From positions 10,230,001 to 10,294,000 of the forward strand of contig NC_090404.1 in assembly GCF_036365525.1 (NCBI RefSeq): 64,000 nucleotides of DNA, in the 5' to 3' direction. Shown here one piece after another: positions 9,853 to 62,601 of the stretch. This DNA comes from Heterodontus francisci. Its lineage: Eukaryota. The translations under genes were made by a program, and so were the position numbers. A model generated the notes under the pieces. It ran no database searches. It was not told the DNA's origin and saw nothing but the letters and a program-made list of their open reading frames with translations. Each line of letters opens with the position of its first letter. The first letter of the stretch is position 1.

Positions 9853-11241
9853 TCATAAATTTTAACATGGACTATTCAGCATAGCATCTTCTGGAACTGA
9901 ATTTTCCTTTTGTTTTAATGAACCACAATGGACAGCAAAGATGGCCACTGAAGATCAGCTGAACTTCAGCCTGAGTATTCAAAAACTGACTCATTGTCTC
10001 AAAAAGACAAAAAGATACCTTCCATGCTATGAGGTGTCATCGATGCCCATCTTGAAACCATCAGGAGACATGCCTGAAGTGAATGGTTTCTCCTGAAGCA
10101 AAGAAGATTGTCTTAACCCTCCTCAGGGTGAATGTCTCAGAATAAACCAGAATGAGGCTAATCAACCTGGACCCCCACCATATTTGGTTACATGATGGGG
10201 CAGCCATGATGGTCTCCTTTTAAAATACGGACTGCAGAAAAAAGCAGCAAGCAGACCAGGCCGTACCATCGTGCCTTAAGAGAACTGGAGGCTGTAACAT
10301 CTTAAGCTCTCCAAGCCTGTTCCTTTTCAGTTCTCCAGTACAGAAAACCAACCTCCTCGTGATGAGACTACAAGCAACTAAGGTCGTGACCTGCTGAAAA
10401 TCCACCTCTTCGAAAGAATCTTGCAACGACTTCGATATACAACTCTGGCTATCGAATCCAAACTAACTACACTTCAGGAGTGAACACGCCTTCTTCACCG
10501 GGCGTGCAATGCATACCTTTTCCCCACAACAAGTTGAATCACGTGACTTACAAATTGCAAACAAAGCAATAGTTTGTGAAAGTGCACTGTCCTTTTAACA
10601 GCTTTCTTTCTCGAGTGTGTGACTGAGTGACGTAGCGTCAGACTTTCGGGTCGAACTTTTTAAAAATTCTTTTATGGGATGTGGGCGTCGCTGGCAAGGC
10701 CAGCATTTGTTGCTCATCCCTAATTGCCCTTGAACGACTGGCTTGTTAGACCATTTCAGAGGGCAGGTAAGTGTCAACTTCATTACTATGGGTCGCGGGT
10801 CACATGTTGGCCAGACCAGGTAAGAATGGCAGATTTCCTTCCCTAATGGACATTAGTGAACCAGATGGGTTTTTACAACAATCGTTGATGGTTTCATGGC
10901 ATCATTACTGAGACCAGCTTCCAGTTCCAGATTTTTATTAATTGATTGGATTTAAATTCTACCAGCTGCTGTGGTGGGATTTAATCCTGTGTTCCCAGGA
11001 CAGTAATCTGGACCTCTGGTTCACTAGTTCAATGATATTACCACTACGCCACCACCTCCCAATGTGTGAATAAAAAGAATTCTCTTTATTTAAACCCACC
11101 AAAAGCGTGCTGCTGGTTATTCAAATTGGTCACACACACAGGTTGAGAAACATGCATCTTTCTTTTCAAAAAACACACCGATTTATGGACAGTAAAGGGA
11201 AGGGAATTATGGTTTCAGTTCTTTCTCAATTCTGTTCGTAA
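9825..11241 (+). mobile_element. ~1 kb insertion (plus nested SINE), probable solo LTR
   Basis: Interrupts the finger array in a linker. Begins TGT, has AATAAA at ~11069 followed by a short U5-like stretch ending ...gttcgtaa. No coding similarity and no clear TSD. Confidence 0.5.
10655..11060 (-). mobile_element. tRNA-derived SINE sharing both head and tail with the LINE at 27750-30838
   Basis: A box TGGCGTAGTGG (rc 11041-11051), decayed B box (rc 10976-10987), body aaaaacccatctggttcactaatgtcc...ggaaggaaatctgcc, tail caagggcaattagggatgagcaacaaatgctggcc...cccacatccc. Confidence 0.88.
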
Positions 11242-14750: not shown

Positions 14751-14754
14751 TTTT

Positions 14755-15345
14755 TACTAATTCATTCTTGGGATGTGGGCATCGCTGGCAAAGCTGGTAT
14801 TTATTACCCTGTCCCTAGTCACCCCTTGAGAAGGTGCTGGTGGTGGGCGGCCGCCTCCTTGAACCGGTTTCATACGACTGAGTGGCTCGTTCGGCCACTT
14901 CAGGGGCAGTTAATAGTCAACCATGTTAGTGTAAGACTTCAGTCACATATACAGGCCCAGACCGGGTAAGGTTGGCAGGTTTACATCACTCGAAGTGCGT
15001 TAACGAAACAATATTACACTAATTGTGAAAAAGCGGGCTATGTGGTCCTTTATCCCTTTGCTGTTTGTGGGATCTTGCTGTGTGCAGCTTGGGCTGCCCA
15101 CATTACCTTACGTTACAGGAGTGAGTACGCATTTTAAAGGTGCTTAATTGACTGTAAACCACTTTGGAATGTCCTGAGGTCGGCAAAGGTGCAGTATAAA
15201 TGAATGTTCTTAGACAATCCAGCAGCTTCATGGTCATTTCTACTGACAACCAACTTTTTTATTTCCAGATTTTGACTTCCAACGCTCAAACTGCCATGGC
15301 AGGATTCGAACTCACGGCCTCTGCATCAATGTAACAGAACCGCGA
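14755..15345 (-). mobile_element. Second variant of the tRNA-head SINE (longer LINE-derived tail), split by a DeuSINE fragment
   Basis: Tail at 14755-14865, body at 14866-15005, head remnant with B box (rc of ggcaggattcgaactc, ~15298-15313). Partly duplicated at 27380-27640. Confidence 0.7.
15020..15210 (+). mobile_element. DeuSINE (AmnSINE1/SacSINE1-like) 3' fragment with L2-type tail
   Basis: gctgtttgtgggatcttgctgtg...ggctgcc...gactgtaaaccactttggaatgtcctgaggtc...aaaggtgcagtataaatg. Truncated copy at 27640-27745. Confidence 0.7.
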
Positions 15346-15386: not shown

Positions 15387-15735
15387 GTTTTTTTATTTAT
15401 TTCGAGATACAGCACTGAAACAGGTCCTTTGGCCCACCGAGTCTGTGCCGACCATCAACCACCCATTTATACTAATCCTACATTAATCCCATATTCCTTT
15501 CACATCCCCACCTGTCCCTATATTTCCCTACCACCTACCTATACTAGGGGAAATTTATAATGGCCAATTTACCTATCAACCTGCAAGTCTTTGGCATGTG
15601 GGAGGAAACCGGAGCACCCGGAGAAAACCCACGCAGACACAGGGAGAACTTGCAAACTCCGCACAGGCATTAACCAGAATTGAACCCGGGTCCCTGGAGC
15701 TGTGAGGCTGCGGTGCTAACCACTGCGCCACTGTG
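15387..15735 (-). mobile_element. V-SINE (HE1-like), tRNA-derived
   Basis: Reverse complement has A box tggcgcagtgg, B box ggttcaattc, V-domain (gagtttgcaagttctccctgtgtctgcgtgggttttctccgggtgctccggtttcctcccac) and a CR1-type tail. Confidence 0.92.
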
Positions 15736-17053: not shown

Positions 17054-19230
17054 GGGAGGCGATAGCAGGGGCTCTGACACAAATTTTCAAATCCTCTCTA
17101 GCCACAGGAGAGGTACTGGAGGACAGCGAATGTGGTACCATTATTCAAGAAGAGTAGCAGGGATAAACCAGTAATTGTAGGCCAGTGAGTCTAACATCAG
17201 TGGGAGGGAAATTATTGGAAAAAAATTCTGAGATACAGGATTAATCTCCACTTGGAGAGGCAGGGATTAATCAGGGATAGTCAGCATGGCTTTGTCAGGG
17301 GGAGATCGTGTCTAACAAATTTGATTGAATTTTTCGAGGAGGTGACTAGATGTGTAGATGAGGGTAAAGCAGTTGATGTATTAGAATTAGAACATCACAG
17401 CGCAGTACAGGCCCTTCGGCCCTCGATGTTGCGCCGACCTGTGAAACCATCTGACCTACACTATTCCATTTTCATCCATATGTCTATCCAATGACCACTT
17501 AAATGCCCTTAAAGTTGGCGAGTCTACTACTGTTGCAGGCAGGGCGTTCCATGCCCCTACTACTCTCTGAGTAAAGAAACTAACTCTGACATCTGTCCTA
17601 TATCTATCACCCCTCAACTTAAAGCTATGTCCCCTCGTGTTTGCCATCACCATCCGAGGAAAAAGACTCTCACTATCCACCCTATCTAACCCTCTGATTA
17701 TCTTATATGTCTCTATTAAGTCACCTCTCCTCCTCCTTCTCTCCAACGAAAACAACCTCAAGTCCCTCAGCCTTTCCTCGTAAGACCTTCCCTCCATACC
17801 AGGCAACATCCTAGTAAATCTCCTCTGCACCCTTTCCAAAGCTTCCACATCCTTCCTATAATGCGGTGACCAGAACTGCACGCAATACTCCAGGTGCGGT
17901 CTCACCAGAGTTTTGTACAGCTGCAGCATGACCTCATGGCTCCGAAACTCGACCCCCCTACTAATAAAAGCTAACACACCATATGCCTTCTTAACAGCCC
18001 TATTAACCTGGGTAGCAACCTTCAGGGATTTATGCACCTGGACACCAAGATCTCTCTGAAGTCTACATGGACTTCAGTAAGGCTTTTGATAAGGTCCCGC
18101 ATGGGAGATTGGTTAAGAAGGTAAGAGCCCGTGGGATCCAGGGTAATTTGGCAAATTGGATTCAAAATTGGTTTAGTGGAAGGAGGCAGAGGGTGATGGT
18201 CGAAGGTTGTTTTTGTGAATGGAGGCCTGAGAACAGTGGGGTACCGCAGGGATCGTTGCTGGGACCCTTACTGTTTGTAGTGTACATTAATGATTTAGAC
18301 GTGAATATAGTAGGTATGATCAGTAAGTTTGCAGATGGCATGAAAGTTGGTGGTGTCGTAAATAGTGAGGAGGAAAGCCTTAGATTACAGGATGATATAG
18401 ATGGGCGGAGCTGTGGCAGATGGAGTTTAATGCTGAGAAGTGTGAAGTGATGCACTTTGGGAGGACTAACAAGGCAAGAGAATATACAATGGATGGTAGG
18501 ACCCTAGGGAGTACAGAGGGTCAGAGTGACCTTGGAGTACTTGTCCTTAGATCACTAAAGGCAGCAGCACAGGTAGATAAGGTGGTTAGGAAGGCATACG
18601 GGATACTTGCCTTTATTAGCCGAGACATAGAATATAAGAGCAGGGAGGTTATGTTAGAGCTGTATAAAATGCTGGTTAGGCCACAGCTGGAGTACTGTGT
18701 ACAGTTCTGGTCACCACACTATAGAAAGGATGGGATTGCACTGGAGAGGGTGCAGAGGAGATTCACCAGGATGTTTTCTCGGCTGGAGCATTTCAGTTGT
18801 GAAGAGAGACTGGATAGGCTGGGGTTGTTTTCCTTTGAGCAGAGAAGGCCGAGGGGGGACCTGATTGAGGTATACAAAATTGAGGGGCATTGATAGGATA
18901 GATAGGAAGGAACTTTTTCCCTTAGTGAAGGGGTCAGTAACCAGGGGGCATGGATTTAAGGTAAGGGGAAGGAGGTTTAGGGGGGAGTGGAGGAAAAAAA
19001 ATTTCACGCAGAGGATCGTTGGAATCTGGAACACACTGCCTGAAGGGGTGGTAGAAGTAGGGACCCTCACAACATTTAAGAAGTATTTAGATGAGCACTT
19101 GGCACGTAGCCTTGTATGCTATGGCGTTTTAAGTGCTGGAAAATGGGATTAGATTGGACAGGTGCTTGATGGTCGGTGCAGGCGCGTTGGGCCGAAGGGC
19201 CCGTTTCTGTGCTGTAAAACTCTATGACTC
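17054..19230 (+). mobile_element. 5'-truncated CR1 nested in the previous CR1
   Basis: [45 protein letters not shown], and 3' tail ...gggccgaagggcccgtttctgtgctgtaaaactctatgactct. Confidence 0.9.
17383..18057 (-). mobile_element. Young CR1 3' fragment nested inside 17054-19230
   Basis: Uninterrupted 193-aa ORF2 C-terminus (17456-18037) with a (ttctaa)n tail. Splits the host at AVDV|YMDFSKAFD. Confidence 0.92.
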
Positions 19231-20112: not shown

Positions 20113-20470
20113 GGGCAGCACAGTGGCGCAGTGGTTAGCACTGCAGCCTCACAGCTCCAGGGACCCGGGTTCGATTCTGGGTACTGCCTGTGTGGAGTTT
20201 GCAAGTTCTCCCTGTGTCTGCGTGGGTTTTCTCCGGGTGCTCCGGTTTCCTCCCACAAGCCAAAAGACTTGCAGGTTGATAGGTAAATTGGCCATTATAA
20301 ATTGTCACTAGTATAGGTAGGTGGTAGGGAAAATATAGGAACAGGTGGGGATGTTTGGTAGGAATATGGGATTAGTGTAGGATTAGTATAAATGGGTGGT
20401 TGATGGTCGGCACAGACTCGGTGGGCCGAAGGGCCTGTTTCAGTGCTGTATCTCTAATCTAATCTAATCT
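20113..20470 (+). mobile_element. V-SINE (HE1-like), full length
   Basis: gggcagcacagtggcgcagtggttagcac...ggttcgattc, V-domain, CR1-type tail ending (tctaa)n. Confidence 0.93.
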
Positions 20471-21464: not shown

Positions 21465-24400
21465 AAATGTGTTCCAGTGCACTAACTGTGGAAAGAGTTT
21501 TAACCAGTTACACAGCCTGAAAAAAAAATTGTCCCATTCACAGGAGGGAGAAACCAGACACTAGTTCTGTGTGTGAACGAGGCTTCTACTGGAGAGACAC
21601 AAGCACACTCGTGCTATGGAAAAGCCACGGAAATGTGGGGACTGTGGGAAGGGATTCAGTTACCCATCCCATCTTGAAATTCATCAACGTAGTCACACTG
21701 GGGAGAGGCCTGCTCCATGTGTGGGAAGGGATTCAAAGAGTTATTCAGTCTCCACAGGCATATGCGAGTTCACACTAGGGAGAGGCCGTTCACCTGCTCC
21801 ATGTGCAGGAAGGGATTCACAAGATTATCCAGTCTCCACAGGCACATGCAAGTTCATGCAGGGGAGAGGCCTTTCCCTTTCTCCATGTGTGGGAATGAAC
21901 TCACTCAGTGATCCACCCTGCTGAAACATCAGAGAAATCACACTGGGCAGAGACCATTCACCTGCTCAATTTGTGGGAAGGGATACGAACATACGAATTA
22001 GGAGCAGGAGTAGGCCACTCGGCCCTTCGAGCCTGCTCCACCATTCAATAAGTTCATGGCTGAACTGATTACTGCATATTTCCACCTACCCCCGATAACC
22101 TTCCACCCCCTTGCTTATCAAGAATCTATCTCCCTCTGCCTTAAAAATATTCAAAGACTCTGCTTCCACCGCCTTTTGAGGAAGAGAATTCCAAAGACTC
22201 ACAACCCTCAGAGAAAAAATTTCTTCTTATCTCTGTCTTAAATGGGCGACCCCTTATTTTTAAACAGTGACCCCTAGTTCTAGATTCTCCCAAAAGTGGT
22301 AACATTCCCTCCACTTCCACATCCTGTCAAGACCCCTCAGGATCTTATATGTTTCAATCAAGTCGCCTCTAACTCTACTAAATTCCAGCGGATACAAGCC
22401 TAACCTGTCCAATCTTTCCTCGTAAGGCAGCCCACCCATTCCAGGTATTAGTCTCGTAAGCCTTCTCTGTACCTCCTCCAACGCATTTACATCCTTCCTT
22501 AAATAAGGAGACCAGAACTGTACACAGTACTCCAGATGTGGTCTCACAAATGCCCTGTATAGCTGAAGCATAACCTCTCTACTTTTGTATTCAATTCCCC
22601 TCGCGATAAACGATAACATTCTATTAGCTTTCCTAATTACATGCTGTACCTGCATACTGACCTTTTGCGATTCATGCACTCGGACACCCAGATTCTTCTG
22701 CATCTCCAAGCTCTGCAATCTCTCACCATTTCGATAATATGTTTTTTTATTCTTCCTGCCAAAGTGGACAATTTCATACTTTCCCACATTATACTCAGTT
22801 TGCCAGGTCTTTTCCCACTCACTTAACCTATCTATATCCCTTTATAGCTCCCTATGTACTCTTCACAGGTTACTTTCCTACCTATCTTTGTGTCATCAGC
22901 AAATTTAGCAACCATACCTTCAGTCCCTTCATGTAAGTCATTTATATAAATTGTAACAATTGTAACATTGCACATGTAACTCCCTCAAAGAACTCCAATA
23001 AATTGATTAAACATGATATCCCTTTCACAAAGCCATGTTTATACTCTGCCTGATTACCTTGAATTTTTCTAAATGCCCTGCTATAACGTCTTTAATTACA
23101 GCTTCTAACATTTTTCCTCAGACAGATTAAGCTAACTGGCCTGTAGTTTCCTGCTTTCTGTCTCCCTCCCTGTTTGAATAAAGGAGTTACATTTGTTATT
23201 TTCCAATCTAATGGAACCTTCCCTGAATCTAGGGAATTTTGGAAAATTAAAACTAATGCATCAACTATCTCACTAGCCACTTCTTTTAACACCCTAAGAT
23301 GAAGTCCATCAGGACCCGGGGACTTGTCAGCCTGCAGCTCCAACAATTTATTCAGTACCACGTCCCTGGTGATTGTAATTCTTTTGAGTTCCTCCTTCCC
23401 TTCCATTTCCTGAGTCACAGCAAATATTGGAATGTTACTTGTATCCTCAATAGTGAAGACCGATGCAAAATATTTGTTCAATTCATCTGCCATCTCTTTT
23501 TTATCCATTATTAATTCCCCAGACTCACTTTCTATAGGATCAACGCTCACTTTAACTTTTTTCTTTTTTAAATATCTATAGACACTCTTACTATGTCTTT
23601 ATAGTTGTAGCTAGCTTTCTCTCGTACTCTAATTTTACCTTCCTCGGCAATCTTTTAGTCATTCTTTGCTGTTTTTAATATTCTGTCCAATCTTCTGACC
23701 TGCCTCCCATCTTTGCACAATTATAGGCTTTTTCTTTAAGTATGATACTGTCTTTAATTATTTTAGATAACCACGGATGGTGGGTCCCACTCTTGGAATT
23801 TTTCTTTCTTGTTGAAATGTATCTATTCTGTGTATTCTGAAATATCCCCTTAAATGTCTGCCACTGCATCTCTATTGACCTATCTGTTAACCTAATTTGC
23901 CAGTTCACTTTAGCTTGCTCTGCTTTCATGCCCTCATAATTGCCCTCAGTTAAGTTTAAAGTACTAGTCATGGACCCACTCTTCTCTCCCTCAAACTGAA
24001 TGTAAATTGCAATCATATTATGATTGCTGCTGCCCAGGGGCGCCTTAACTATGAGGTCATTAATTAATCGGATCTCATTGCACAATACCAAGTCTAGTAT
24101 AGCCTGCTCTCTGGTTGGCTCCAGAACGTATTGTTCCAAGAAATTATCCCGAAAACATTCTCATCTCTACCCAAACTGCTTCGACATCCTGGTCTGCTGA
24201 ACTTAGGTCATCCCTCTCTATTGCACTAATAATTCACTCAGTCATTCAGCCTACTGAGACACCAGAGAATTCACACTGGGAAAAACCATTCACCTGCTCC
24301 ATCTGTGGGAAGGGATTCACACAAAAATCCAACCTGCTGGCCCACCAACGGCTTCGCACTGGGGAGAAGCCGTTCTCATGCTCCATGTGTAAGAAGGAAT

Positions 24401-24615
24401 TCACTCAGTATTCCATGCTGCTGAAACACTAGAGAGTTCACACTGGGGAGAGGCTGTTCACCTGCTCCATGTGTGGAAAGGGATTCATAGGTTCATCCAA
24501 CTTGCTGATGTGCCAGGTAGTTCATGCTGGGAAGAGGCCGTTTACCTGCTGCATGTGTGAGAAGCAATTCACTCATTCATCCAACCTGGTGACTCACCAG
24601 CAAGTTCACAAGTGA
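21465..24615 (+). pseudogene. C2H2 zinc-finger pseudogene (unit 2), split by a CR1 insertion
   Basis: Fingers at 21465-21985 (FQCTNCGKSF; [14 protein letters not shown]...) with frameshifts and stops, resuming at ~24240-24615 with an in-frame TAG. Ends gttcacaagTGA, then the family trailer to ~24790. Confidence 0.9.
21986..24235 (-). mobile_element. CR1 LINE, 5'-truncated and internally deleted, inserted inside a finger
   Basis: [33 protein letters not shown] ORFs. Tail rc ...ttcgtatgttcgtat at 21984-21998. Confidence 0.92.
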
Positions 24616-25849
24616 CCACAGGGGTCAGATTCTGCTGTTATTGCTGCTTTTAATCACATTCAGGACTGAACTATGTTCATTCAGACAGATGGAGTTTTTT
24701 TTCCCTCCTGCTAATAACCACTATAACTGGGCTGGAGTTTAATATTTTGGAGAAATGTGAAATGAATCAGTTTTGTTTTAAATACACTGTTGAATATTTT
24801 TGTCAGTTGGGGTTTGTTGCTGCTGAATCGGAATTGACAGTGATAGACTGAGGTATAGACATAAGTGAATTTAAGAGAATCACTTGATTGGAGTAACTGA
24901 AGGGCGTTCTTTGTTTGTAATTGTGTTTATCTAATTTTGTCGCTAACTTTGGTGAGCAAATGACATTTTATCCATGAGAGATTCTGTTTCTGTATTTTAG
25001 AATCCAGGACCTGTTTCACAGCCTGTCTAGATGAAAAAACTTGGCTACCTACCGTTAATCTCTCTGTCGCTTCCTGTCCCACCCTGCTTTTCTGTTATAC
25101 TTGACTTTTCGAACTGCTAACTGCTTCACCCCATAAAACTCCCCAGAGTTGGTGATCACTGCCCTTTTATTGGCTGCCCTGTCTTGAGATACATATAACA
25201 AGCAGGTGGAGAAGTTGCACCATCAGAGATCATCATGAGTTAAATTATCTTGTGACAACAGCAATGAGAAATGATCCGTCTTCCTATTACTGATTTTTCT
25301 ACTGCCTCACCTCAAAGACCACAATAACAATCCTCTCCTTGAGTATCATGATTTATTGGATGAATTTGCATCCTGACACAGTGTGAATCCAGAGGTCATC
25401 CGATAAGGTCTATCTACCATCCCGTCACATGATGCAGCTAGCTCTATTCTGTCACCAAAAGTAATTTGCATTGGCATTGCTATTTTGCTTGCTAGCTAGC
25501 TGATATAGTTGTGCTGTTCTCCATTAATGTTTGTATCCTTACCTACTTTATTTAGAGGGAGAAATGTGTTTTAAATTGGTGTGTTTTGGTGGCATTAGAT
25601 TGGCTATGGATTTTATACACAGTTTAATTGCCCCATGTCCGTGGCTGAGTCACTAATTTTGACACATGTCTGTGGTGCAACATGTTGGTGCCTATCCCTG
25701 CTCTCAGCTGCTGTGAAAGTGTCTCCAGCACACTCACAGCTCTGATCAAAGTGACACTGCAAAAGCTCCAGATACAGTCCAGCACCTCGCCTGCGCGCTG
25801 GGCTCCTGTAGTGTGAATAAGGCACATTTACTTCCATGGGGAATGATCA

Positions 25850-26469: not shown

Positions 26470-26785
26470 CATACAGCACTGAAACAGGCCCTTCGGCCCA
26501 CCGAGTCTGTGCCGACCAACAACATCCATTTATGCTAATCCTACATTAATCCCATGTCCCCGACCACAAACCCACCTTCCCTCAATTCTCCTACCACCTA
26601 CCGAAACTAGGGGCAATTTACAACAGCCAATTTACCCATCAACCTGCAAGTCTTTGGCTGTGGGAGGAAACCGGAGCACCGGCGAAAACCCACGCGGTCA
26701 CAGGGAGAACTTGCATACTCCTCGCAGGCAGTGCCCAGAACTGAACCCGGGTCGCTGGAGCTGTGAGGCTCACCACTGCGCCACC
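26470..26785 (-). mobile_element. V-SINE (HE1-like)
   Basis: Same V-domain and tail as 20113-20470, reverse orientation. Confidence 0.9.
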
Positions 26786-26804
26786 CTATGAAATGTCCTT
26801 TTCC

Positions 26805-27375
26805 GGAGTGACGCCCATCTTTCTCTAGGGCTGCGATGCTTTATTTCTCCTGGTTTAATCGCGTTCGTGCAGATTTGACCCGAACAAAGATGGTGGGCGG
26901 GGTTTGTCATTTCTCCCGAGCGGAGCAGCTGCGCATGCGCGAGTGGCGGTTGTCGGAGGCGCACGGTGAATTTTTTTCGCATCGGGAAATTTGAACGTGG
27001 GACGGTTTAACGGTCGCCGGCGTTGCCATGGCTGTGGGGGCGGGGCTTGATAACGGCGCGCGCCGGCACAGGTCGACCATCGAGCTGAGCAGCGGCAGGT
27101 GAGCGGCCAGGAGCAAGGCCGCGGAGAGAGCCTGGGGCTCGAGTGGGAGTCGGCAGGCCCCGGGCTGGCCTCTCTCCTGAAGAGGACACCACTCTGACTG
27201 GGGCCACCCAAAACACTCAAACACGGGGATTTTAATGTCACAGCCTTTGAGGGGGAGGCAATGGGTGCGAGAAAACCTGGTTGATAATGACTGAGCTTGG
27301 ATGGGTTTTGGTGTCTCCAGTGGGTGGGCTTCAGATTTTCCACCAGTCCCTTTGAGGAAAGGACTGGCTGCAAGT
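26805..27375 (+). promoter_or_regulatory. CpG promoter and non-coding first exon of zinc-finger unit 3
   Basis: Paralogue of 14170-14750. NRF1-type GCGCATGCGC 26931-26940, GC boxes, donor CAG|GTGAGC at 27099, acceptor cttttaCAG at 31013. Confidence 0.8.
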
Positions 27376-27749
27376 TTTTACTAATTCATTCTTGGGATGT
27401 GGGCATCGCTGGTAAAGCTGGTATTTATTACCCTGTCCCTAGCCACCCCTTGAGAAGATGCTGGTGGTGGGCGGCCGCCTCTTTGAACCGATTTCATACG
27501 ACTGAGTGGCTCGTTCGGCCACTTCAGGAGCAGTTAATAGTCACCCATGTTAGTGTAAGATTTCAGCCACATATACAGGCCCAGACTGGGTAACGACAGC
27601 AGGTTTCCATCCCTCGAGGGACATCAAACAACCAATTTTACATTAATTGTGAAAAAGCGGTCTATCTGGTCCTTTATCCCTTTTCTGTTTGTGGGATCTT
27701 GCTGTGCACATCTTATGCTGCCCAAGTTAACTGACATTACAAGACCTGC

Positions 27750-30700
27750 ATTTATTGCCCATCTCTAATTTCCCTTGAGAAGATGGTGGTGAGCTGCCGT
27801 CTTGAACGGCAACAGTCCATGTGAGGTAGGTACACCCACAGTGCTGTTAGGAAGGGAGTTCCAGGATTTTGACCCAGTGACAGTGAAGGAACAGTGATAC
27901 AGTTCCAAGTCAGGATGGTGTGTGGCTTGGAGGTGAACTTGCAGGTGATGGTGTTCCCATGCATCTGCTGCCCTTGTTCTTCTAGATGGTTGAGGTTATG
28001 GGTTTGGAAGGTGCTGTCTAAGGAACCGTGGTGCATTGCTGCAGTGCATCTTGTAGATGGTACACACTGCTGCCACTGTGCATCAGTGGTGGAGGGAGCG
28101 AATGTTTGCGGATGGGGTGCCATTCAAGGAGGCTGCATTATCCTGGTTGCTGTTGAGCTTCTTGAGTGCTGTTGGAGCTGCATCCATTACTCACTGCAGG
28201 ATTCCTAGCTTCTGATCTGCTCTTGTAGCCAGGCCATTTATATGGCTACTCTGGTTCAGGTTCTGGTCAATGGTAACCCTCAGCATGTTGATAGTGGGAG
28301 ATTCAGTGATTGTGATGCCATTGAATGTCAAGGAGAGTTGCTTAGATTCTCCCTTCTTTGAGATAGTCATTGCCTGGCGCTTGTGTGGCATGAATATTAC
28401 TTGCCACTTATCAGGGAAAGCCTGGACAATATCCAGGCTTTGCTGCATTTCTACACAGACAGCTTCAGTATCTGAAGAGTCGCGATTGGTGCTGAACACT
28501 GCGATCATCACTGAACATCCCCACTTCTGACCTTATGACTGAAGGAAGGTCAGAGATGAAGCAGCTGAAGATGATTGGGCCTACCCTGAGGAACTCCTGC
28601 ATTAATGTCCTGGAGCGGAGATGATTGACCCCCAACAACACCACCATCTTCCTTTGTGTTAGGTATGACTTCAACCAGTGGAGAGTTTTGCCCCTGATCC
28701 CCATTGACTCCAGGTTTGCTGGAGCTCCTTGATGCCATATTCGATCAAATGCTGCCTTGATGTCAAAGGCAATCACTCTCACCTAACCTCTTGAATTCAG
28801 CTCTTTTGTCCATGTTTGAACCAAGGCTGTGATGAGGTCAGGAGCTGAAAGGCCCTGGCGGAACCCAAACTGAGCGCCAATGAGCAGGTTATTGCTGAGC
28901 AAGTGCTGCTTGATAGCACTGTTGTCAACAGCTTCCATCACTTTACTGATGATCGCGAATAGACTGATGGGGCAGTAATTGGCCGGGTTGGATCTCTCCT
29001 GCCTTTTGTGTATATTACATATCTGGGCAATTTTCCACATTGCCGGATCGATACCAGTGTTGTAGCTGTACTGGAACAGCTTGGCTAGGGGTGCAGCAAG
29101 TTCTGGAGCACAAGTCTTCAGTACTATTGCCGGAATGTTGTCAGGGTCCAAATGCTTTGCAGTATCCAATGCCTTCAATCGTTTCTTGGTATCACGTGGC
29201 GTGAATCCAATTGGCTGAAGACTGGCATCTGTGATGCTGGGGACCTCAGTAGGAGGCTGAGATGCCTGAAGATTGTTGCAAATGCTTCAGCCTTATCCTT
29301 TGCACAGTTGTGCAGGGCTCCCCCCATCATTGAGGATGGGGATATTTGTGGAGCCACCTCCTCCAGTTAGTTGTTTAATTGCCTGCCCCCAATTACAACT
29401 GGATCTGGCAGGACTGCAGAGCTTAGATCTGATCTGTTGTTTGTGGGATCGCCTAGCTCTGTCTATCACATGCTGCTTTCGCTGTTTGGCACGCGGTTGT
29501 AGCTTCACCAGGTTGACATCTTATTTTGAGGTATACCTGGTGCTTCTCCTGGCATGCCCTCCTGCACTCTTCATTGAACCAATTTGGTCACCTGGCTTGA
29601 TGATTATGGTAGAGTGGGGGATATGCCGGGCCATGAGGTTACAGATTGTGGTCGAGTGCAATTCTGCTGCTGCTGCTGATGGCCCACAGCGCCTCATGGC
29701 CGCCCAGTTTTGCTTTGCTAGATCTGTTTGAAATCGATCCCATTCAACACGGTGGCAGTGCCATAAAACACAATGGAGGGTATCCTCAGTGTGAAGACGG
29801 GACTTCGTTTCCACAAGAACTGTGTGGTGGTCACTCCTACCAATACGGTCATGGACAGATGCATCTGCAGCAGGCGGATTGGTGAGGACGAGGTTAGGTA
29901 CGTTTTTCCATTTTGTTGGTTCCTTCACCAACTGCCACAGACCGAGTCTGGCAGCTATGCTTTTTTGGACTTGGCCAGTAATAGTGCTACCGAGTCACTC
30001 TTGGTGATGAGTACCGCCAGAGTACATTCTGTGCCCTTGCCACCCTCCGTGCTGTTCCAAGTGCAAGTCCACTTGCTCCAAGTGCTGTTCAACATGGAGG
30101 AGTACTGATTCATCAGCTGTTGGGGCGGGCGGGGGGGGGGGTGATGATCAGCAGGAGGTTTCCTTGCCCAGGTTTGACCCGAAGCCATGAGACTTCATGG
30201 GGTCTGGCATCGATGTTGACTCCCAGGGCAACCCCTGACTGTATACCACTGTGTTGCCACCTCTGCTGGGTCTGTCCTGCTAGTGGGGCAGGCCATACCC
30301 AGGGATGGTGATGGTGGTGTCTGGGACATTGTCTGTAAGGTATGATTCGGTGAGTATGACTATGTCAGGCTGCTGCTTGACTAGTCTGTGGGACAGCTCT
30401 CCCAACTTTAGCACAAAGCCCCCAGATTTTAGAAGGAGAACTTTGCAGGGTCCACAGGGCTCGGTTTTCTGTTGTTATTTCCGGTGCTTTGGTCGATGCC
30501 GGGTGGTCCATCCAGTTTCGTTCTTTATTGACTTTGTAGCGGTTTTGATACAACAGAGTGGCTGGCTCAGCCATTTCAGAGTCAACCGCATCGCCTGGGG
30601 ATCTGGAGTCCATGTAGGCCAGGCTAGGCCAGGTCAGGATGGCAGATAGTGAACCAGATGGGTTTTTACAACAATCAACAGTGGTTTCATGGCCATCATT

Positions 30701-30838
30701 AGGCTAGCTTTTTAATTCTAGATTTATGAATTGAATTCACATTCCACCTTCTGCCATAGTGGAATTTGAACCCATGTCCCTGGAGGTATTCTCTGGGTCA
30801 TTAGTCCAGTGATAATACCACTGCACCACCGCCTCCCC
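27750..30838 (-). mobile_element. Near full-length CR1/L2-group (Crack/Daphne-like) LINE with tRNA-derived 5' head and no ORF1
   Basis: Head with A box (rc 30818-30828) and B box (rc 30761-30772). APE endonuclease start ~30430 (GELSHRLVKQQPDIVILTESYL...IPGY...DRPSRGG), SDHHTV, PDNIPAIVLKTCAPELA, QFGFRQG, DIKAAFDRIWH. 3' tail ...agggaaattagagatgggcaataaatgc. Confidence 0.88.
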
Positions 30839-31354
30839 GGTATCGTGGGATAAGTTTGGATTTCAGCACAGGGAGGAGGGAGAGTGTGTGGGACGAGGAT
30901 TTACAGCTTTGGGGGCACAAGAGAGGAAATAATGTTCCATAGAAACTAGGATTGTCTGTTCTGAATTTCTATGCTGTATTGATGGTGATGACTTCTGTAA
31001 ATCTCTTTTACAGGGTATTAGAAGGGGAAGATTTGCAGACTCAAACTCAAACCAAACATCACGTCAAGAACTGACAGAGACACTCAATTCACCAGAACCT
31101 GAATATCATCGGCTTTTGAATGTGGAAAGAAAAATGTTTGTCTGTCTGCCTGTAGGATAAGATTTCAAACATCAGTGTGACTGGAAAAGCACCAAGACAC
31201 ACGCACACCCGATGAGAGTGTTCCAGTGCACTGACTGGAAAAAACATTACATCAATCACAGCAGGGGGAAACTGTACACCCACTGTGTGTGTGTGTGTGT
31301 GGACAGGGTTTCAAGTGAGCGTCCAACCTGGAGAGACGCAAGGACACCCACACC

Positions 31355-32113
31355 ACGGAGAGACCATGGAAATGTGGGGACTGTGGAAAGGGATTTACTT
31401 CCCCATCCCAGCTGGAAACTCATCGTCGCATTCACACTGGGGAGAGGCCATTCACCTGCTCCGTGTGTGAGAAGGGATTCATTCGGTCCTCCCACCTGCT
31501 GACACACCAGCGAGTTCACACTGGAGAGAGGCCGTTTACCTGCTCCATGTGTGGGAAGGGATTCACTGAAGCATCCAACCTTTTGAGACACAAGCGGGTT
31601 CACACTGGGGAGAAGCCGTTCACCTGCTCTGTGTGTGGGAAGCAATTCACTCAGTCAGCCCACCTGCTGAAACATCAGAGAATTCACACTGGGGAGAGGC
31701 CATTCACCTGCTGTGTGTGCGAGAAGGGATTCATTGATTCATCCCACCTGCTGTCACACCAGCGCATTCACACTGGGGAGAGGCCGTTCACCTGCTCTGT
31801 GTGTGGGAAGGGATTCACTCATTCATCAAACCTGCTGATACACCAGCGAATTCACACTCGAGAGAAGCCATTCACCTGCTCCGTTTGTGGGAAGGAATTC
31901 ACTCAGTCATCTCACCTTCTGACACACCAGCGAATTCACACTGGGGAGAGGCTATTCACCTGCTCCGTGTGTGAGAAGGCATTCATTAATTCATCCGTCC
32001 TGCTGAGACACCAGCGCATTCACACCGGGGAGAAGCCTTTCACCTGCTCCATTTGTGGAGAGGGATTTAATCAATCGTCTGTTCTGCTGAGACACCAGCG
32101 AGTTCACAAGTGA
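31355..32113 (+). CDS. C2H2 zinc-finger reading frame, 9 intact fingers (unit 3); usual ATG is ACG
   Basis: Open from the TGA at 31316-31318 to the TGA at 32111-32113, with 9 canonical fingers and TGE(R/K)P linkers. ACG at 31355 aligns with the ATG of MEKPW in unit 1. First in-frame ATG is 31547. Confidence 0.75.
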
Positions 32114-32174: not shown

Positions 32175-33095
32175 CTGGAAGCCTGTTTCCAGTTGGGATT
32201 CCACAGGGCTCAAAACTAGGCTGCTTTTGTGGTTATGTATCAATGATTTAGACTTGAATGGAGGGGCTCTGATTAAGAAGTTTGCAGCTGATAACGATTG
32301 GTCGTATGGTTGATAAAGTTTCTGCTCCAGAACTTGTCGCACCCCTAGCCAAGCTGTTCCAGTACAGCTACAATGGCAATGTGGCATCTACCCAGCAATG
32401 TGGAAAATTGCCAGGTATGTCCTGACTCCCCAAAGCCTGTCCACCATTTACAGGGCACAAATCAGGAGTGTGATTGAATAATCTCTACTTGCCTGGATGG
32501 GTGCAGCTCCAACAACAGTGAAGAAGCTCGACACCATCCACGTCAAAAGAGCCCGCTTGATTGGCACCCAGTCCACAAATATTCACTCCCTCCACCACCG
32601 ATGCACAGTGGCAGCAGTTTGTGTACCATCTACAAGACGCGCTGCAGCAATGCACCAAGGCTCTTTTGACAGCACCTTTGAAACCTGCGACCTCTACCAT
32701 CTACAAGGACAAGAGCAGCAGATGCCTGGGAACACCACCATGTGAAAGTTCCCCTCCAAGCCACACACCATCCTGACTTGGAACTATATCACTGTTCCTT
32801 CACTGTTGCTGGGTCAAAATCCTGGAACTCCCTTCCGAATAGCACTGTGGGTGTGCCTATACCCCAAGACTGCAGTGGTTCAAGAAGGCAGCTCACCGCC
32901 ACCTTCTCAAGGGAAATTAGAGATGGGCAATAAATGCTGGTCTAGCCAGCAGTGCCCACATCCCACGAACGAGTAAAACTGACAGGGCTATGGAGCAAGA
33001 GCTGGAAAGTGGAAATAGGCTGGATAGTTCTTTTTTGGCCAGCACAGAAATGATGGGCCGAATGGCCTCCTGTGCAACTAGTTTTCTATGTTTCT
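32175..33095 (+). mobile_element. CR1 fragment with nested Crack-like LINE 3' fragment (32322-32975), inserted in the unit-3 trailer
   Basis: MGAAPTTVKKLDTI..., tail gggaaattagagatgggcaataaatgctgg. The trailer resumes at 33095. Confidence 0.85.
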
Positions 33096-36545: not shown

Positions 36546-39500
36546 TTTTTTTTTTAATTTCCAAAATATACTTTATTCATAAAAATCTGTCAAAAATACA
36601 TTACCAAACAGTTTCAAACAGCACCAAGTCAAAAATTACAAACAGTGCAAAGGTGATCAGTTTCCTTCAATACAATCATGAGTTGCCTCACAACCCTTCC
36701 ATTTTATTTGTTATGCCATAGACATTTTTACATTTTATAGCACACGAAATTTTCCCGATACAGTTCAAGGGCTTTCCCATGGATCCAGCCCCTTCAGCTT
36801 GGTGGGGGGACCTTACACAGTGGTCTTTCCCTATTGAGCCTTTGCTGCGGCTGCCCCAAGCTTTAGTGCGTTCCTCAGCACGTACTCCTGGACCTTGGAA
36901 TGTGCCAGTCTGCAACATTCGGTCGTGGACAACTCTTTGTGCTGGAAGACCAGCAAGTTTCGGGCAGATCAAAGGGCGTCTTTCACCGAATTGATAGTCC
37001 TCCAGCAGCAGTTGATGTTTGTTTCGGCGTGCGTCCCCGGGAACAGCCCATAGAGCACAGACTCCTGTGTTACAGAGCTGCTTGGGATGAACCTCGACAA
37101 AAACCACTGCATCTCTTTCCACACCTGCTTTGCAAAGACACATTCCAGAAGGAGGTGGGCAACCGTGTCTTCCCTACCACAGCCACCACGGGGGCATTGT
37201 ACGGAGGGGGTGAGACTTTGGGCGTGCAGGAAGGATCTAACGGGGAGGGCTCTTCTCACCACCAGCCGAGCTACATCTTGGTGCTTGTTTGAAAGTTCTG
37301 GTGATGAGGCATTCCGCCAAATGACTTTGGCGGTCTGCTCGGGGAACCATCCGATAGGGTCCACCGTCTCCTTTTCCCATAGGGCCTTGAGAACATTCTA
37401 TTCATACCACTACCTGATGGATCAGTGGTCAAAGGTGTTTTCCCGCAGAAATTGCTCCACGAAGGATAGGTGGTACGGCACAGTCCAACTGGTTGGAGCG
37501 TTCCGCGGCAATGTGACCAGGCCCATCCTTCGCAACACCAGGGACGGATAGAACCTCAGCACGTAGTGACCCTTGGAGTTTGCGTACTGGAGGTCTACAC
37601 ACAGCTTGATGCAGCCGCACACGAAGGTGGTCATCAGGATGTGGGCCACGTTTGGTACATTTTTCCCGCCCTTATCCAGAGATTTGAACGTCGTGTCCCT
37701 CCGGACCCGGTCCATTTTGGATCCCCAGATGAAGCGAAAATGGGTCAGGTGACCGCCACAGCGCAGGAGTGGGGTATGGGCCAGACCTGCGCCATGTACA
37801 GCAACAACGTGAGCGCCTCGCACCTGATGACCAGGTTCTTACCCACAATGGAGAGAGATCGCTGCCCCCACATTCTCAGCATATGTTGTACCTTGGCTAC
37901 TTGCTCCTCCCAGGTTTTGGTGCACGCCCCAACCCTTCCGAACCATATCCCAACACCTTCAGGTAGTCTGACCTTACGGTGAAGGGGACAAAGGATCGGT
38001 CAGCCCAGTTCCCAAAGAACATGGCCTCGCTCTTGCCGTGGTTAACTTTGGCTCCCGAGGCCAGTTCAAACTGGTCGCAGATGCTCATCAGTCTGCGCAC
38101 AGACAGCAGATCCGAGCAGAAAATGGCGACGTCATCCATGTACAGGGAGGTTTTAACCTGAGTGCCTCCACTGCCGGGATTGTCACCCCTCTTATGCTCG
38201 CATCCTTCCGAATAGACTCAGCAAAGGGTTCATTACAGCAAACAAACAAGACCGGGGAGAGAGGACAGCCCTGTCTGACTCCAGATTGGATCGGGAAACT
38301 TTCCGATTCCCACCCATTGATTGAAACAGCGCTACTGATGTTTGTGAAGAGCAGTTGGATCCAATTGCAGATTCCCTCCCCAAACCCCATTTTAGAAAGC
38401 ACGTCCATCATGTAGGTGTGCGATATCCTGTCAAAAGCCTTCTCCTGGTCCAGGCTGATGAGGCAGGTGTCCACCCTCCTGTCCCGCACATAGGCGATTG
38501 TATCCCTGAGTAGCGCGAGACTATCAGAGATCTTCCTGCCGGGTACAGTACAGGTCTGATCAGGGTGAATCACCAACTCCAAAGTAGACTTGACTCGACT
38601 GGCTATGACTTTGGACAGAATCTTGTAGTCAACATTAAGCAGTGAGATGAGCCGCCAATTTCTGATTTCTGCCCTCTCCCCCTTCTGCTTGTAGATGAGG
38701 ATGGTGCTGCCTTTCCTCATGGATTCTGACATGCTGCCGGCCAGGAGCATACTCTCGTATACTTCCAGCAGGTCCGGGCCGACCCAGTCCCACAGGGCCG
38801 AATACAACTCGACCGGTAAGCCGTCGCTTCCGGGAGTTTTACTCATCTCGAAGGACTCGACGGCATTCGTCAGCTCGTCCAGAGTTAGCGGCTTGTCCAG
38901 TCTCTCCCTCATGCTGTCATCTAAGAACTCCGTGATAGATGACAGGAAGGACTGGGAGGCTCTGCTGTCTGTGGGCTTCGCGTCATACAGCCCAGCATAA
39001 AAGGATTTGCTGATCCTTAGTATGTCGAACTGCGAAGACGTTACTGAGCCATTCTCTTCCTTCAGGCTGCTAATCACAGAGCTCTCTGTGTACCTTTTGG
39101 AAGAAGTAACGCGAGCACGTCTCATCCTGCTCAATGGAGCAGACTCTGGACCAGAAGATGATCTTGGAGGCCTCCATGGCAAAGAGCAAGGCCTGCTGGC
39201 TCTTCACCTCTTGGAGATCCTCCTTGACCTCGACCCCTATCGACTGCAGCCGGAGCAGATTTTGCATACTTTTCTGGGGTCAGGACATTTCCCTCTGTCT
39301 CTCTCTCGCCCTCTGAACACCTTTGAGGATAAAGAACCTCTTGATGTTCTCCTTGATCACCTCCCACCAGTGAACTGGAGACTCAAAGAGGGGTTTCATG
39401 GTTCGCCAACCTTTGTAATCCCTTTTGAGTTCCTCAATGTTCTCTGGAGTTAGCAGTGTAATATTGAGCTTCCACGTCCCCCTGCCAACCCGCTGGTCGT

Positions 39501-40479: not shown

Positions 40480-43400
40480 ATGAACACAGGTTATCCGTAT
40501 CAAGCTACTGTCCACAGGATTGTCACTGACCTCATCTCCTTCGGAGATCTTCCCTCTACAGCTTCCAACCTCATAGTCCCACAACCCCAGACAGCCTGCT
40601 TCTACTTCCTTCACAAAATCCACAATCAGGACTGTCCCGGCGGACCCATCGTTTCAGCCTGTTCTTTCCCCACTGAACTTATTTCTTCCTATCTTGACTC
40701 TATCTTTTCTCCCCTGGTCTAGTCTCTTCCCACCTAAATCCACAACTTCTGATGCCCTACATCATTTTGACAATTTCCAGTTTCCTGGCCCTAACCGCCT
40801 CCTCTTCACTATGGACATCCAATCTCTCTACACTTCCATCCCCCACCAGGACGGTTGGAGGGCTCTCCGCTTCTTACTTGAACAGAGGCCCAACCAGGCC
40901 CCATGCACCACCACCCTCCTCCGCCTGGCTGAACTTGTTTTCACATTGAACAACTCCTCCTTCAACTCCACGCACTTCCTTCAAGTAAAAGGTGTCGCTA
41001 TGGGTACCCGCATGGGTCCTAGTTATGCCTGCTTTTTGTGGGATATGTCGAGCATTCTTTGTTCCAGTCCTACTCAGGCCCCCTCCCCCAGCTCTTTTTC
41101 TGGTACATTGATGACTGTATCGGTGCCATTTCCTGCTCCTGCCCCGAACTGGAAAACTTTATCAACTTTGCTTCCAATTTCCACCCTTCTCTCACCTTTA
41201 CATTGTCCATCTCCGACACTTCCCTTCTCTTCCTCGACTTCTCTGTCTCCATCTCTGTGGATAGGCTGTCCAGTAATATTCATTATAAGCCCACTGACTC
41301 CCACAGCTACCTGGACTACACTTCTTAACACTTTGCCTCCTGTAAGGACTCCATTCCATTCTCCCAGTTTCTCCATCTCCGACACATCTGCTCTGATGAT
41401 GTAACCTTCCACAACATATCCAACATTTCCCACCACCACCCTCCCCCCCCCCACCCCACTGTGTTTGACAAGGCCCACAACTGGCTTCGGCCCATTTCCT
41501 GCACCTCTACCCTCACCCCTTCCCCTCCCTCCCAGAACCGCTACAGGTTTCCTCTTGTCCTCACTTTCCACCCCACTAGCCTTCACATCTAACGGATCAT
41601 CCTCCGCCATTTCCACCATGTCCAGCGTGATGCCACTACCCTTCCCCTCCCCTCCTGTCAGCATTCCGAAGGGATCGTTCCCTCTGCGACACCCTGGTCC
41701 ACTCCTCCATTACCCCCACCACCTATTTAATGAACTACAAAGCGGGTATATACCCCTGAGAGGAAAAAGCTCCACTTCACTGAAAAAACAGCCATGGACA
41801 ACTAAAGAGATTTGGGATAGCATAAAACAAAAAGAAAGGGCTTACAAAACGTAGCACAGATCCGGCTGAATGGGATCGATACAAACACCAGCAAAGGGTC
41901 ACAAAGCAGCTTATCAGAGCGACTAAAAGATTATGAAAGGAAACTTGCAAGGGACATCAAAATCAATAAGAAGAAATTTTATAGTTACATAAAGGGAAAA
42001 CGGGTGGTCAAGAGCAAAGTAGGCCCACTAAAAGCTGAAAATGGAGATATTGTCATTGATAATGGGGAAATGGCAGACATGTTGAACAATTACTTTGCCT
42101 CAGTATTTACAGTTGAAAAGGAGGATAACTTGCCAGGAGTCCCAAAAAAATTAATAGCCGATAGGGGACAGAGACTTAATACAATTAACGTAAGTAAAAC
42201 ATCAGTAACAAGGAAATTAATGGAACTAAAGCGTGAGAAATCCCCAGGAACTGACGGTTTCCACCCGAGGGTGTTAAAGGAAGAAGGGGAGCACATTGTA
42301 GATAGAGCAGGGTACTTTCTAAATAGGAAGTGGTTAAGTACAGTGGACGTCCAAAGAGACTTGGGGGTTCAGGTGCATAGATCTTTAAAATGCCATGAGC
42401 AAGTGCAGAAAATAATCAAAAAGGCTAATGGAATGCTAGCCTTTATATCTAGAGGACTGGAGTATAAAGACACAGAGGTTATGCTGCAGCTGTACAAAAC
42501 CCTGGTTAGACCCCACTTGGAGTACTGTGAGCAGTTCTGGGCACCACACCTTCGGAAGGATATATTAGCCTTGGAGGGAGTGCAACGTAGGTTTACAAGA
42601 ATGATACCTGAACTACAGGGGTTAAGTTACAAGGAGAGATTACACAAATTAGGCCTGCTTTCGCTAGAATTTAGAAGGTTAAGGGGTGATCTGATTGAAG
42701 TCTTCAAGATATTAACAGGAAAAGACAGGCTAGATAAAGATAAACTATTTCCACTGGTTGGAGAGTCTAAAACTAGGGGGCATAGTCTAAAAATTAGGAC
42801 CAGACCGTTCAGGAGAGATGTTAGGAAGCACTTCTTCACGCAAAGGGTGGTAGAGGTTTGGAACTCTCTCCCACAAACAGCAGTTGGAGCGAGATCAGTT
42901 GTTAATTTTAAATCTGAGATAGATAGAGTTTTGTTAAGCAAAGATATTAAAGCATATGGGCCAAAGGCAGGTATATGGAATTAGGCCGTGGATCAGCCAT
43001 GATCTCATTGAATGGCGGGACAGGCTCGAGGGGCTGAATGGCCTACTCCTGTTCCTGTGTCCTATGTTCCCCTTCCATGGCACCTTCCCATGATCGCAGG
43101 AGGTGTAATAGCTGCCCTTTTACCTCCTCTCTCCTCACTATCCAAGGCCCCAAACACTCCTTTCAAGCGAAGCAATGATTTACTCGTACTTCTTTCAATT
43201 TAGTATACTGTATTCGCTGCTCACAATGCGGTCTCCTCGACATTGGGGAGACCAAACGCAGATTGGGTGACCGCTTTGCGGAACACCTCCGCTCAGTCCA
43301 AAAACATGACCCTGAACTTCCTGTCACTTGCCATTTCAACACCCCACCCCACTGCCCTCATGCCCACATCTCTGTCCTGGGCTTGCTGCAGTGTTCCTGT

Positions 43401-43910: not shown

Positions 43911-43914
43911 ATCC

Positions 43915-44020: not shown

Positions 44021-44029
44021 GTTTTTATT

Positions 44030-45585
44030 CCTTCATCGGGTTGAGCATCGCTGGCTACACCAGCATTTATTGCCCATCCCTAATTTCCATTGAGAAGGTG
44101 CTGGTGAGCTGCCTTCTTGAACCGCTGCAGTCCATGTAGGATAGGCAAACCCACAGTGCTGTTAGGAAGGGAGTTCCAGGATTTTGACCCAGCGACACTG
44201 AAGGAACGGTGATATAGTTCCAAGTCAGGATGGTGTGTGACTTGGAGGAAGCTTGCAGGTGGTGGTGTTCCAATGCATTTGCTGCCCTTGTCCTTCTATG
44301 TGGTAGAGATCGTGCGTTTGTAAGGTGCTGTCTAAGGATCCTTGGTGCATTGCTGCAGTGCATCTTGTAGATGGTACACACTGCTTCCACTGTGCGTTGT
44401 TGGTGGAGGGAGTGAACATTTTTGGTTGGGGTGCCTATCAAGCGGGCCGCTTTGTCCTGGATGGTGTCAAGCTTCTTGAGTGTTGTTGGAGCTGCACCCA
44501 TCCAGGCAAGTGGAGCGTATTCCATCACACTCCTAACTTTTTTTTTATTTAGAGATACAGCACTGAAACAGGCCCTTCGGCCCACCGAGTCTGTGCCGAC
44601 CAACAACCACCCATTTATACTAACCCTACAGTAATCCCATATTCCCTACCACCTGCCTACACTAGGGGCAATTTACAATGGCCAATTTACCGATCAACCT
44701 GCAAGTCTTTGGCTGTGGGAGGAAACCGGAGCACCCGGCGAAAACCCACACGGTCACAGGGAGAACTTGCAAACTCTGCACAGGCGGTACCCAGAATCGA
44801 ACCCGGGTCCCTGGAGCTGTGAGGCTGCGGTGCTAACCACTGCGCCACTGTGCCGCCACTTGTGCCTTGTCGATGGTGGACAGACTTTGGGGAGTCAGGA
44901 GGTGAGTTACTCACCTCAGGATTCCTAGTCTCTGACATGCTCTTGTAGCCATGGTATTTATATGGCTACTCCAGTTCAGTTTCTGGTCAGTGGTAACCCC
45001 CAGGATGTTGATAATGGAGGATTCAGCGATCATAATGCCATTGAATGTCAAGGGGAGATGGTTATTTTCTCTCTTGTTGGAGATGGTCATTGCCTGGCAC
45101 TTGTGTGGCGTGAATGTTACTTGCCACTTATCAGCCCAAGCCTGGATATTGTCCAGGTCTTGCTGCATTTGGGCACGGACTGCTTCAGTATCTGAAAAGT
45201 CGCGAGTGGTGCTGAACATTGTGCAATCATCAGCGAATATCCCCACTTCTGACCTTATGATTGAAGGAAGGTCATTGATGAAGCAACTGAAGATGATTGG
45301 GCCTCAGATACTACCCTGAGGAACTCCTGCAGTGATGTCCTGGAGCTGGGATAATTGACCTCCAACAACCACAACCATCTTCCTTTGCGCTCGGTATGAC
45401 TCCAACCAGTGGAGAGTTTTCCCCCTGATTCGCATCGACTTCAGCTGTGTTGGGGCTCCTTGATGCCATACTCGGTCAAATGCTGCCTTGATGTCAAGAT
45501 CAGTCACTGTCACCTCACCTCTTGAGCTCAGCTCTTTTGTCCTTGTTTGAACCAAGGCTGTAATGAGGTCAGGAGCTGAGTGGGT
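44030..45585 (-). mobile_element. Crack-like LINE 3' half (same family as 27750-30838)
   Basis: LDIKAAFDRVWHQG, GVPQGS, FADD, VRSVMEYAPLAWMGAAPTTLKKLDTIQ, shared 3' tail. Confidence 0.9.
44538..44858 (-). mobile_element. V-SINE (HE1-like), nested in the LINE
   Basis: A and B boxes, V-domain, CR1-type tail. Confidence 0.92.
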
Positions 45586-50228: not shown

Positions 50229-50269
50229 CAAATTTAAAATAGGAAAAAGGGAGCGCGAGAGAACCCACA

Positions 50270-62285: not shown

Positions 62286-62289
62286 GAAT

Positions 62290-62432
62290 TGCACTGTGGG
62301 TGTACCTACCTCACATGGACTGCAGCGGTTCAAGAAGGCAGCTAACCACCACCTTTTCAAGGGCAATTAAGGATGAGCAATAAATTCTGGCCTGGCCAGT
62401 GACGCCCACATCCCATGAATGAATTAAAAAAA
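62290..62432 (+). mobile_element. Crack-like LINE 3' end
   Basis: gcactgtgggtgtacctac...caagggcaattaaggatgagcaataaattctggcc...cccacatcccatgaatgaat. Confidence 0.85.
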
Positions 62433-62601
62433 TTTAGCGATTAGGGTTTGAAACGACTATTAACAACACCAGTGTCAGTTGACACGTTTTTTTCACTTCG
62501 TGTTTTTTTATGCTCACATTGATGAGTCACAAAACAGCCTCATGAATTTTTCGTTCAGGGAACCTTCTGTCTGGCCCTAGCCCAATTTCTTCCCCTCTTT
62601 C

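Follow-up and report, generated by a model that had tools for sequence, protein, structure and literature searches.

LINEs are taken to be RNA polymerase II elements, and tRNA-derived heads are the mark of non-coding SINEs. In 64,000 nucleotides of the Heterodontus francisci genome (contig NC_090404.1, positions 10,230,001 to 10,294,000; hereafter the window), a preliminary description made from the sequence noted a LINE that seems to break this rule: a tRNA-derived, polymerase III-type head followed directly by endonuclease and reverse transcriptase, without ORF1, was proposed to be an autonomous element and the parent of the local SINEs. The locus raises the question of whether the head belongs to one copy or to a family and, if to a family, what its function might be and how it relates to the SINEs that share it.

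Anatomy and surroundings of the LINE copy

The LINE copy extends from 27744 to 30838 on the minus strand and is made of the following parts, listed from its 5' end.

30762..30838, minus strand: tRNA-like head with A box (30828-30818) and B box (30772-30762); the same start is found in 7/7 elasmobranch consensuses of the Zenon family (see below)
30545..30761, minus strand: body, common to free SINEs; an 18-nt motif of the window matches rows of elasmobranch Zenon
30445..30544, minus strand: LINE-only linker, ~100 nt, recovered in contigs, predicted proteins and consensuses
29800..30444, minus strand: APE endonuclease segment of the single, broken ORF, located by tblastn of the Pfam-annotated proteins P0046 and P0065
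27765..29799, minus strand: remaining ORF with the reverse transcriptase (about 29030-28350), broken; stop at ~27767
27744..27764, minus strand: 3' UTR, ~45 nt short by comparison with sister copies

The head begins at 30838 and contains, as initially described, matches to the A box (TGGTGCAGTGG, 30828-30818) and to the B box (GGTTCAAATTC, 30772-30762, one mismatch relative to the family form). The A...B box pattern occurred once in 64 kb and in 0/300 mononucleotide shuffles, a chance figure that is post hoc since the pattern was composed to fit the boxes of this copy. ARAGORN detected no tRNA gene in the head and Rfam gave no tRNA match, so the head is tRNA-like rather than a tRNA gene. Head and body together (30838-30545) measure 294 nt, in line with the ~290-nt SINE-like stretch reported initially; the body alone accounts for ~220 nt and harbors copy-specific deletions near 30647 and 30580. 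The first 191 nt of head and body are 73% identical to the free SINE at 11060. The direct succession of linker and endonuclease was also found as described, although the linker is about 100 nt long and not 120. Inspection of the copy likewise revealed no room for an ORF1 between head, body, linker and endonuclease; the join shows neither poly(A) nor the tail of a SINE.

The endonuclease starts at ~30444, as the alignments of the full-length endonuclease-reverse transcriptase (EN-RT) relatives P0046 and P0065 begin at 30435 and 30444, respectively; its 3' limit (29800) is approximate. Pfam detected no endonuclease in the ORF pieces of the window itself, and RVT_1 matched the ORF piece 28782-28468. 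The ORF is interrupted by many stops and frameshifts. The copy ends at ~27744 without the final ~45 nt present in its sister copies and has lost its poly(A) tail, whereas short A-rich tails are preserved at the ends of the sister copies at 44023 and 62436. Because these final ~45 nt are missing, the target-site duplication is unreadable. The 5' boundary is sharp, since the flank matches a paralogous zinc-finger intron (8888) as far as 30842 and no further. The LINE copy is a dead, nearly full-length element. Its relatives in the window are truncated.

44023..45579, minus strand: 5'-truncated sister LINE in two pieces, about 85% identical, with an intact A-rich tail
32320..32978, plus strand: 5'-truncated sister LINE pieces
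62286..62436, plus strand: 3' end of a sister LINE with an A-rich tail

The window covers a C2H2 zinc-finger gene cluster with many LINEs and SINEs. One zinc-finger exon lies at 31319-32113 (plus strand), and the LINE lies antisense just upstream of it, probably in an intron. A reverse transcriptase fragment at 38193-38867 (minus strand) belongs to a further LINE, distant from both Zenon and the other CR1-type family, which was used as a control. A block at 14172-15120 and one at 26798-27744 are 87.5% identical over 950 nt and represent a duplication that includes a GC-rich, likely promoter region.

9260-9820, 21500-21990, 24230-24800, 49000-50600, 58900-60000 and 63280-63860 (near these positions): zinc-finger paralogues
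164-2527, 12150-14120, 17470-19110 and 21980-24150: old pieces of the other CR1-type LINE family (control), about 65-84% alike
42330-43080, 50800-53750, 54320-55820 and 62600-63180: further pieces of the control family

The head-to-endonuclease join in the Zenon family

By sequence likeness, the LINE is an elasmobranch Zenon, a family that has already been catalogued (PMC13343379). Zenon is defined in that source as lacking ORF1 and as poly(A)-tailed across all phyla, and the window copy indeed has a single APE-RT ORF and no ORF1. The initial description of a head-bearing, ORF1-less LINE stands, with the corrections that the family is catalogued and that the absence of ORF1 is typical of Zenon. 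According to the same source, elasmobranch Zenons are present in no repeat repository, yet were recognised in the whale shark genome; for 6/7 elasmobranch families, its Table S3 has denominators between 59 and 2,313 per family and counts 0-3 intact ORF2 (PMC13343379).

The elasmobranch consensuses were compared by eye over the first 400 nt of each (Supplementary Table 2 of PMC13343379). All seven (2,886-3,314 nt; five species, namely four sharks and one ray: white shark, whale shark, catshark, spiny dogfish and stingray) begin with head, body and linker, whereas none of the three coelacanth and hagfish Zenon consensuses (one and two, respectively) begins with the head. The LINE copy was colinear by eye with the published elasmobranch consensuses over these 400 nt. 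CarCar_Zenon-1, RhiTyp_Zenon-1, ScyCan_Zenon-1, SquAca_Zenon-1/2/3 and HypSab_Zenon-1 (Stuart et al. 2026) thus have the same 5' 400 nt as the window copy and, like it, a single EN-RT ORF without ORF1; the family has an A-rich tail and a length of about 3.1-3.3 kb, and the decay of the copy is the sole difference. In the 1,004-row consensus table, exact window motifs of 18 and 13 nt matched 6 and 4 rows, and six spellings of the B box matched 6 rows, all of them elasmobranch Zenon. The other Zenons (coelacanth CR1-5_LCh, hagfish, insects, crustaceans and molluscs) are likewise described as ORF1-less, poly(A)-tailed LINEs of the CR1 group (PMC13343379). The first 400 nt of the coelacanth and hagfish consensuses (three, in the orientation as printed) lack a tRNA head and contain runs of four or more T.

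Contigs from four public runs (three organisms) were aligned to 29950-31000 at 80% likeness (37,155, 51,159, 53,813 and 1,041 contigs). The bins of the LINE-only linker had a high summed contig depth in three organisms, a value that differs from copy number and has no single-copy baseline, because the zinc-finger flank is repeated too. About 120 contigs per DNA run carried the same alternative letters at 30488-30520. Among the 32 contig pieces listed, three bridged the linker and the endonuclease and none bridged the body and the linker; the body-to-linker join therefore rests on the published consensuses and the predicted proteins. Of 86 proteins examined, six matched head, body or linker DNA, and all six continued into the endonuclease of this LINE. 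P0010, P0011 and P0017 carry body-coded peptides (E 8e-7, 2e-5 and 2e-14, respectively), P0011 and P0017 probably skipping part of the linker by splicing or deletion, and the linker-endonuclease join was visible by eye in the predicted Mustelus protein P0088. The closest named protein matches to the LINE came from the sharks Heptranchias, Pristiophorus, Scyliorhinus, Mustelus and Heterodontus. The LINE copy was nearer to P0046 than to P0043, the reverse being observed for the other CR1-type family of the window.

These data bear on two other possible origins of the join. The window contains no second full-length copy and the 3' end of this one was hit by a deletion, as might be expected if a LINE had inserted beside or into a SINE, or if a local recombinant had formed. 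We consider such a one-off event to have a negligible probability, since consensuses, contigs of three organisms and predicted proteins share the same joins, which excludes a junction unique to this locus. A LINE always inserting at one site of a SINE, the head being target DNA, would also generate many identical joins. This origin is very improbable: the 5'-truncated sister copies lie in unrelated flanks with no 3' half of a SINE behind their tails, and the consensuses of about 3.3 kb run from the head to the end. As judged from these comparisons, full-length elements of the shark and ray family normally consist of head, body, linker and endonuclease, in this order.

Several other signals were set aside. 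Low contig depth at 30598-30633 and 30418-30453 matched the LINE copy's own indels and was not a finding. Metagenome pattern matches at 17 loci were attributed to chance, as 0/17 showed similarity beyond the 21-29 nt around the pattern, and the protein matches P0020, P0028 and P0051 were unrelated repeats. In three runs, contigs aligned on both sides of 30416-30647 with the middle unaligned, which may reflect a shorter variant or divergence of the copy. The public shark gene models P0002, P0004, P0005, P0006, P0008, P0088, P0089 and P0090 contain pieces of the LINE inside unrelated proteins, likely as annotation artefacts or exonisation.

The main text of PMC13343379 contained no match for tRNA, none for promoter and one for SINE. 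The head is present in the data of that study, yet undiscussed in its main text. No description of a tRNA-headed autonomous LINE family was found among the papers searched, as distinct from entries in Repbase, Dfam or SINEBase. The family and its missing ORF1 are thus known; the tRNA head appears to have gone unremarked.

SINEs that map onto the two ends of the LINE

Three SINE copies of the window, one full and two partial, map wholly onto the 5' and 3' ends of the LINE.

10655..11060, minus strand: full-length SINE of ~405 nt, made of the LINE head and body followed by the last ~80 nt of the LINE
27375..27620, minus strand: SINE fragment, made of the body and a ~110-nt LINE tail; the overlap at the join is a shared CG
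14760..15010, minus strand: paralogue of the preceding, long-tailed fragment

Both fragments (27620-27375 and 15010-14760) derive from one insertion, duplicated with the paralogous block. The SINE joins contain no unassigned base and have two different breakpoints. With no base left over, this is the anatomy of an internal deletion of the LINE. Some local SINEs are likely to have arisen from the LINE by loss of its middle, to judge from how they map. The proposed parentage of the local SINEs probably holds for these three copies and does not extend to other tRNA-headed types: neither the second tRNA-headed SINE nor the fragments of the third type matched the LINE head.

26471-26790, 15407-15731, 20123-20451 and 44555-44848: second tRNA-headed SINE of ~320 nt, four copies, 81-85% identical to the first
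15030-15215 (plus strand), 27654-27744 (plus strand) and 43911-44016 (minus strand): third SINE-like repeat, fragments

The second SINE presumably resembles V-type HE1, and we take the third repeat to be an L2-tailed SINE. At 15030 the latter seems, on visual inspection, to split a complete head-type SINE, the 5' part of which lies at about 15215-15330. The third repeat also adjoins the cut LINE tail at 27744.

The opposite history has to be considered, in which a Zenon-tailed SINE came first and donated head and body to its partner LINE, today's SINEs descending from that SINE. This reading concerns history and is compatible with transcription by either polymerase. The headless first 400 nt of the three non-elasmobranch consensuses imply that the head was gained. 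The window SINEs share 68-85% identity with the LINE parts, a greater divergence than among the LINE copies themselves (about 85%). Exchange of modules is common among SINEs, and a SINE-like piece is reported in the 5' UTR of the Ingi-3_AC LINE (PMC5786205). Against this, the shared 5' part of the LINE stops exactly where the tail of the long-tailed SINE starts, with a 2-nt overlap, implying that a capture would have had to switch templates at that very point, and the other SINE that maps onto the LINE has its own clean breakpoint. A SINE-first origin is a serious contender to which we give somewhat less than an even chance.

The body of SacSINE1 is presumably a different sequence from that of the Zenon-type SINEs. 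An initial assignment of the body to the Deu domain or SacSINE1 was withdrawn; no printed SacSINE1 consensus was found in the papers searched. SacSINE1, of the DeuSINEs, is a tRNA-headed SINE of sharks like the partner SINE here (Luchetti 2017; PMC5499810). As described, SacSINE1 (463 bp, L2-type tail) would differ from the partner SINE (~405 nt, Zenon tail) (PMC5499810).

Closer precedents exist for the two-part architecture. Bipartite LINE-derived SINEs (Bov-tA, RTE and Vingi derivatives) similarly combine a 5' part and a 3' part of a LINE (Kojima 2018; PMC5786205). In those SINEs the tRNA head has been placed on a LINE that is deleted and non-autonomous, with RTE and Vingi as the only contributors identified (PMC5786205), whereas the Zenon head is located on a full-length coding element of a CR1-group clade. 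In its survey of Repbase, the same study recovered LINE 5' parts in SINE bodies from RTE and Vingi only, and it regards the origin of the widely conserved bodies as unknown (PMC5786205). Zenon is also described as the partner of tRNA-headed SINEs in bivalves on the basis of tail homology (PMC11481361). Finally, tRNA sequences are fused 5' of a LINE in tRNA/LINE-1 chimeras, reported as 21 one-off insertions with mostly antisense tRNA halves (PMC13174262). The Zenon head, by contrast, is in sense orientation, comprises the whole promoter and is fixed in a family that propagates.

Putative promoter, start of the ORF and a possible life cycle

The A box fits TRGCNNAGTGG in 7/7 elasmobranch consensuses and the B box is canonical in 6/7, with a variable A-to-B spacer (by eye). 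In the LINE copy and in the three consensuses measured, the 5' end precedes the A box by 8-10 nt. A tRNA-type promoter starts transcription about 8-10 nt before the A box, and full-length retrotransposed copies record the 5' end of their RNA; the ends of the copies thus match the start of a tRNA-type promoter. By sequence, the A and B boxes lie inside the transcribed 5' end, as in a type-2 polymerase III promoter. From the conserved boxes and the position of the 5' end, we infer that Zenon may be transcribed by polymerase III.

A polymerase III RNA of 3.3 kb must avoid runs of T. The sense strand of the LINE copy has one run of four or more T in 3,095 nt (4.8 expected, P 0.04), and family copies have 17 runs of three or more T versus 37.5 expected. 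No deficit was observed in the control CR1 family (125 versus 105 expected), which is older and more T-rich and not a matched control. By alignment, three of the four T4 runs of the family copies are private to one copy, and the fourth appears so from protein P0001. The T4 deficit was not significant relative to dinucleotide shuffles (1 versus 2.1, P 0.30). A codon test for specific avoidance of T runs was not significant (Phe TTT share of 0.35 versus 0.44 for the other two-fold codons, P 0.48; xTT/xTC, P 0.053). A general preference for C-ending codons accounts for most of the T-run scarcity, which is compatible with polymerase III but not specific to it.

The start of the single ORF poses a distinct problem. 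RNAs made by polymerase III lack a cap and tend to be short, so that it is difficult to see how an ORF of ~900 codons would be translated from one. No conserved in-frame AUG for the endonuclease-RT ORF was found in the family. A family ATG at 30521 (ACG in the LINE copy) opens a frame of ~46 codons that overlaps the start of the endonuclease with an offset of one base; the T at 30520 is present in about 96-99% of the aligned contig depth in the four runs. The endonuclease frame has a basic leader. The body ATG at 30591, in frame in the LINE copy, was rejected as the start: the spacer from the body to the conserved ATG varies (29, 29, 25, 29, 28 and 21 nt in six consensuses, counted by eye), so that the frame of the body ATG is not conserved among them.

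An ordinary polymerase II 5' UTR or promoter, producing a capped RNA, would eliminate this translation problem. The A and B boxes of the family-wide head would then be relics, or act as an insulator or enhancer. The mostly codon-based T-run deficit is in keeping with such a promoter, and LINEs and their bipartite derivatives are considered very likely polymerase II transcripts (PMC5786205). Such a promoter, however, accounts poorly for the persistence of both boxes in sharks and a ray despite a changing spacer, and for full-length copies whose 5' ends coincide with the start expected of a type-2 polymerase III promoter. We hold it to be unlikely, if well short of negligible. Transcription of Zenon by polymerase III from the tRNA-derived head, combined with SINEs born by deletion, is the reading that we favor by a slight degree from the sequence comparisons.

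The preferred polymerase III reading can be set out as a cycle. An ancestral Zenon would have gained the head by a template switch to a tRNA or SINE RNA before the split of sharks and rays. The head would act as the internal promoter from which RNA polymerase III transcribes the complete 3.3-kb RNA for endonuclease and RT: TFIIIC would bind the two boxes of every new copy, and full-length copies would carry their own promoter, with a start 8-10 nt before the A box. The single ORF would be translated with no conserved AUG in frame, the probable routes being non-AUG initiation or a -1 shift from the conserved upstream AUG frame. The Zenon protein would bind the 3' end of the RNA and insert it by target-primed reverse transcription. 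Internal deletions that retain promoter and tail would then generate ready-made SINEs. The complete scheme, in which Zenon is an autonomous polymerase III retrotransposon with an uncapped RNA translated without a conventional AUG and with one-step birth of SINEs by deletion, is offered tentatively, with somewhat less than an even chance of being correct.

Zenon, with a tRNA-type promoter kept across sharks and rays, provides a natural test of whether polymerase III can produce a 3-kb coding RNA that is translated. Its two ends offer a one-step route to the birth of a SINE and an origin for one SINE body, a question left open in Kojima 2018. Repeat libraries may split head-bearing Zenon copies into a SINE and a LINE, in which case full-length elements would be hidden and shark SINE counts inflated. 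If Zenon is transcribed by polymerase III, translated and a source of SINEs, the line drawn between LINEs and SINEs on the basis of their promoters would be erased.
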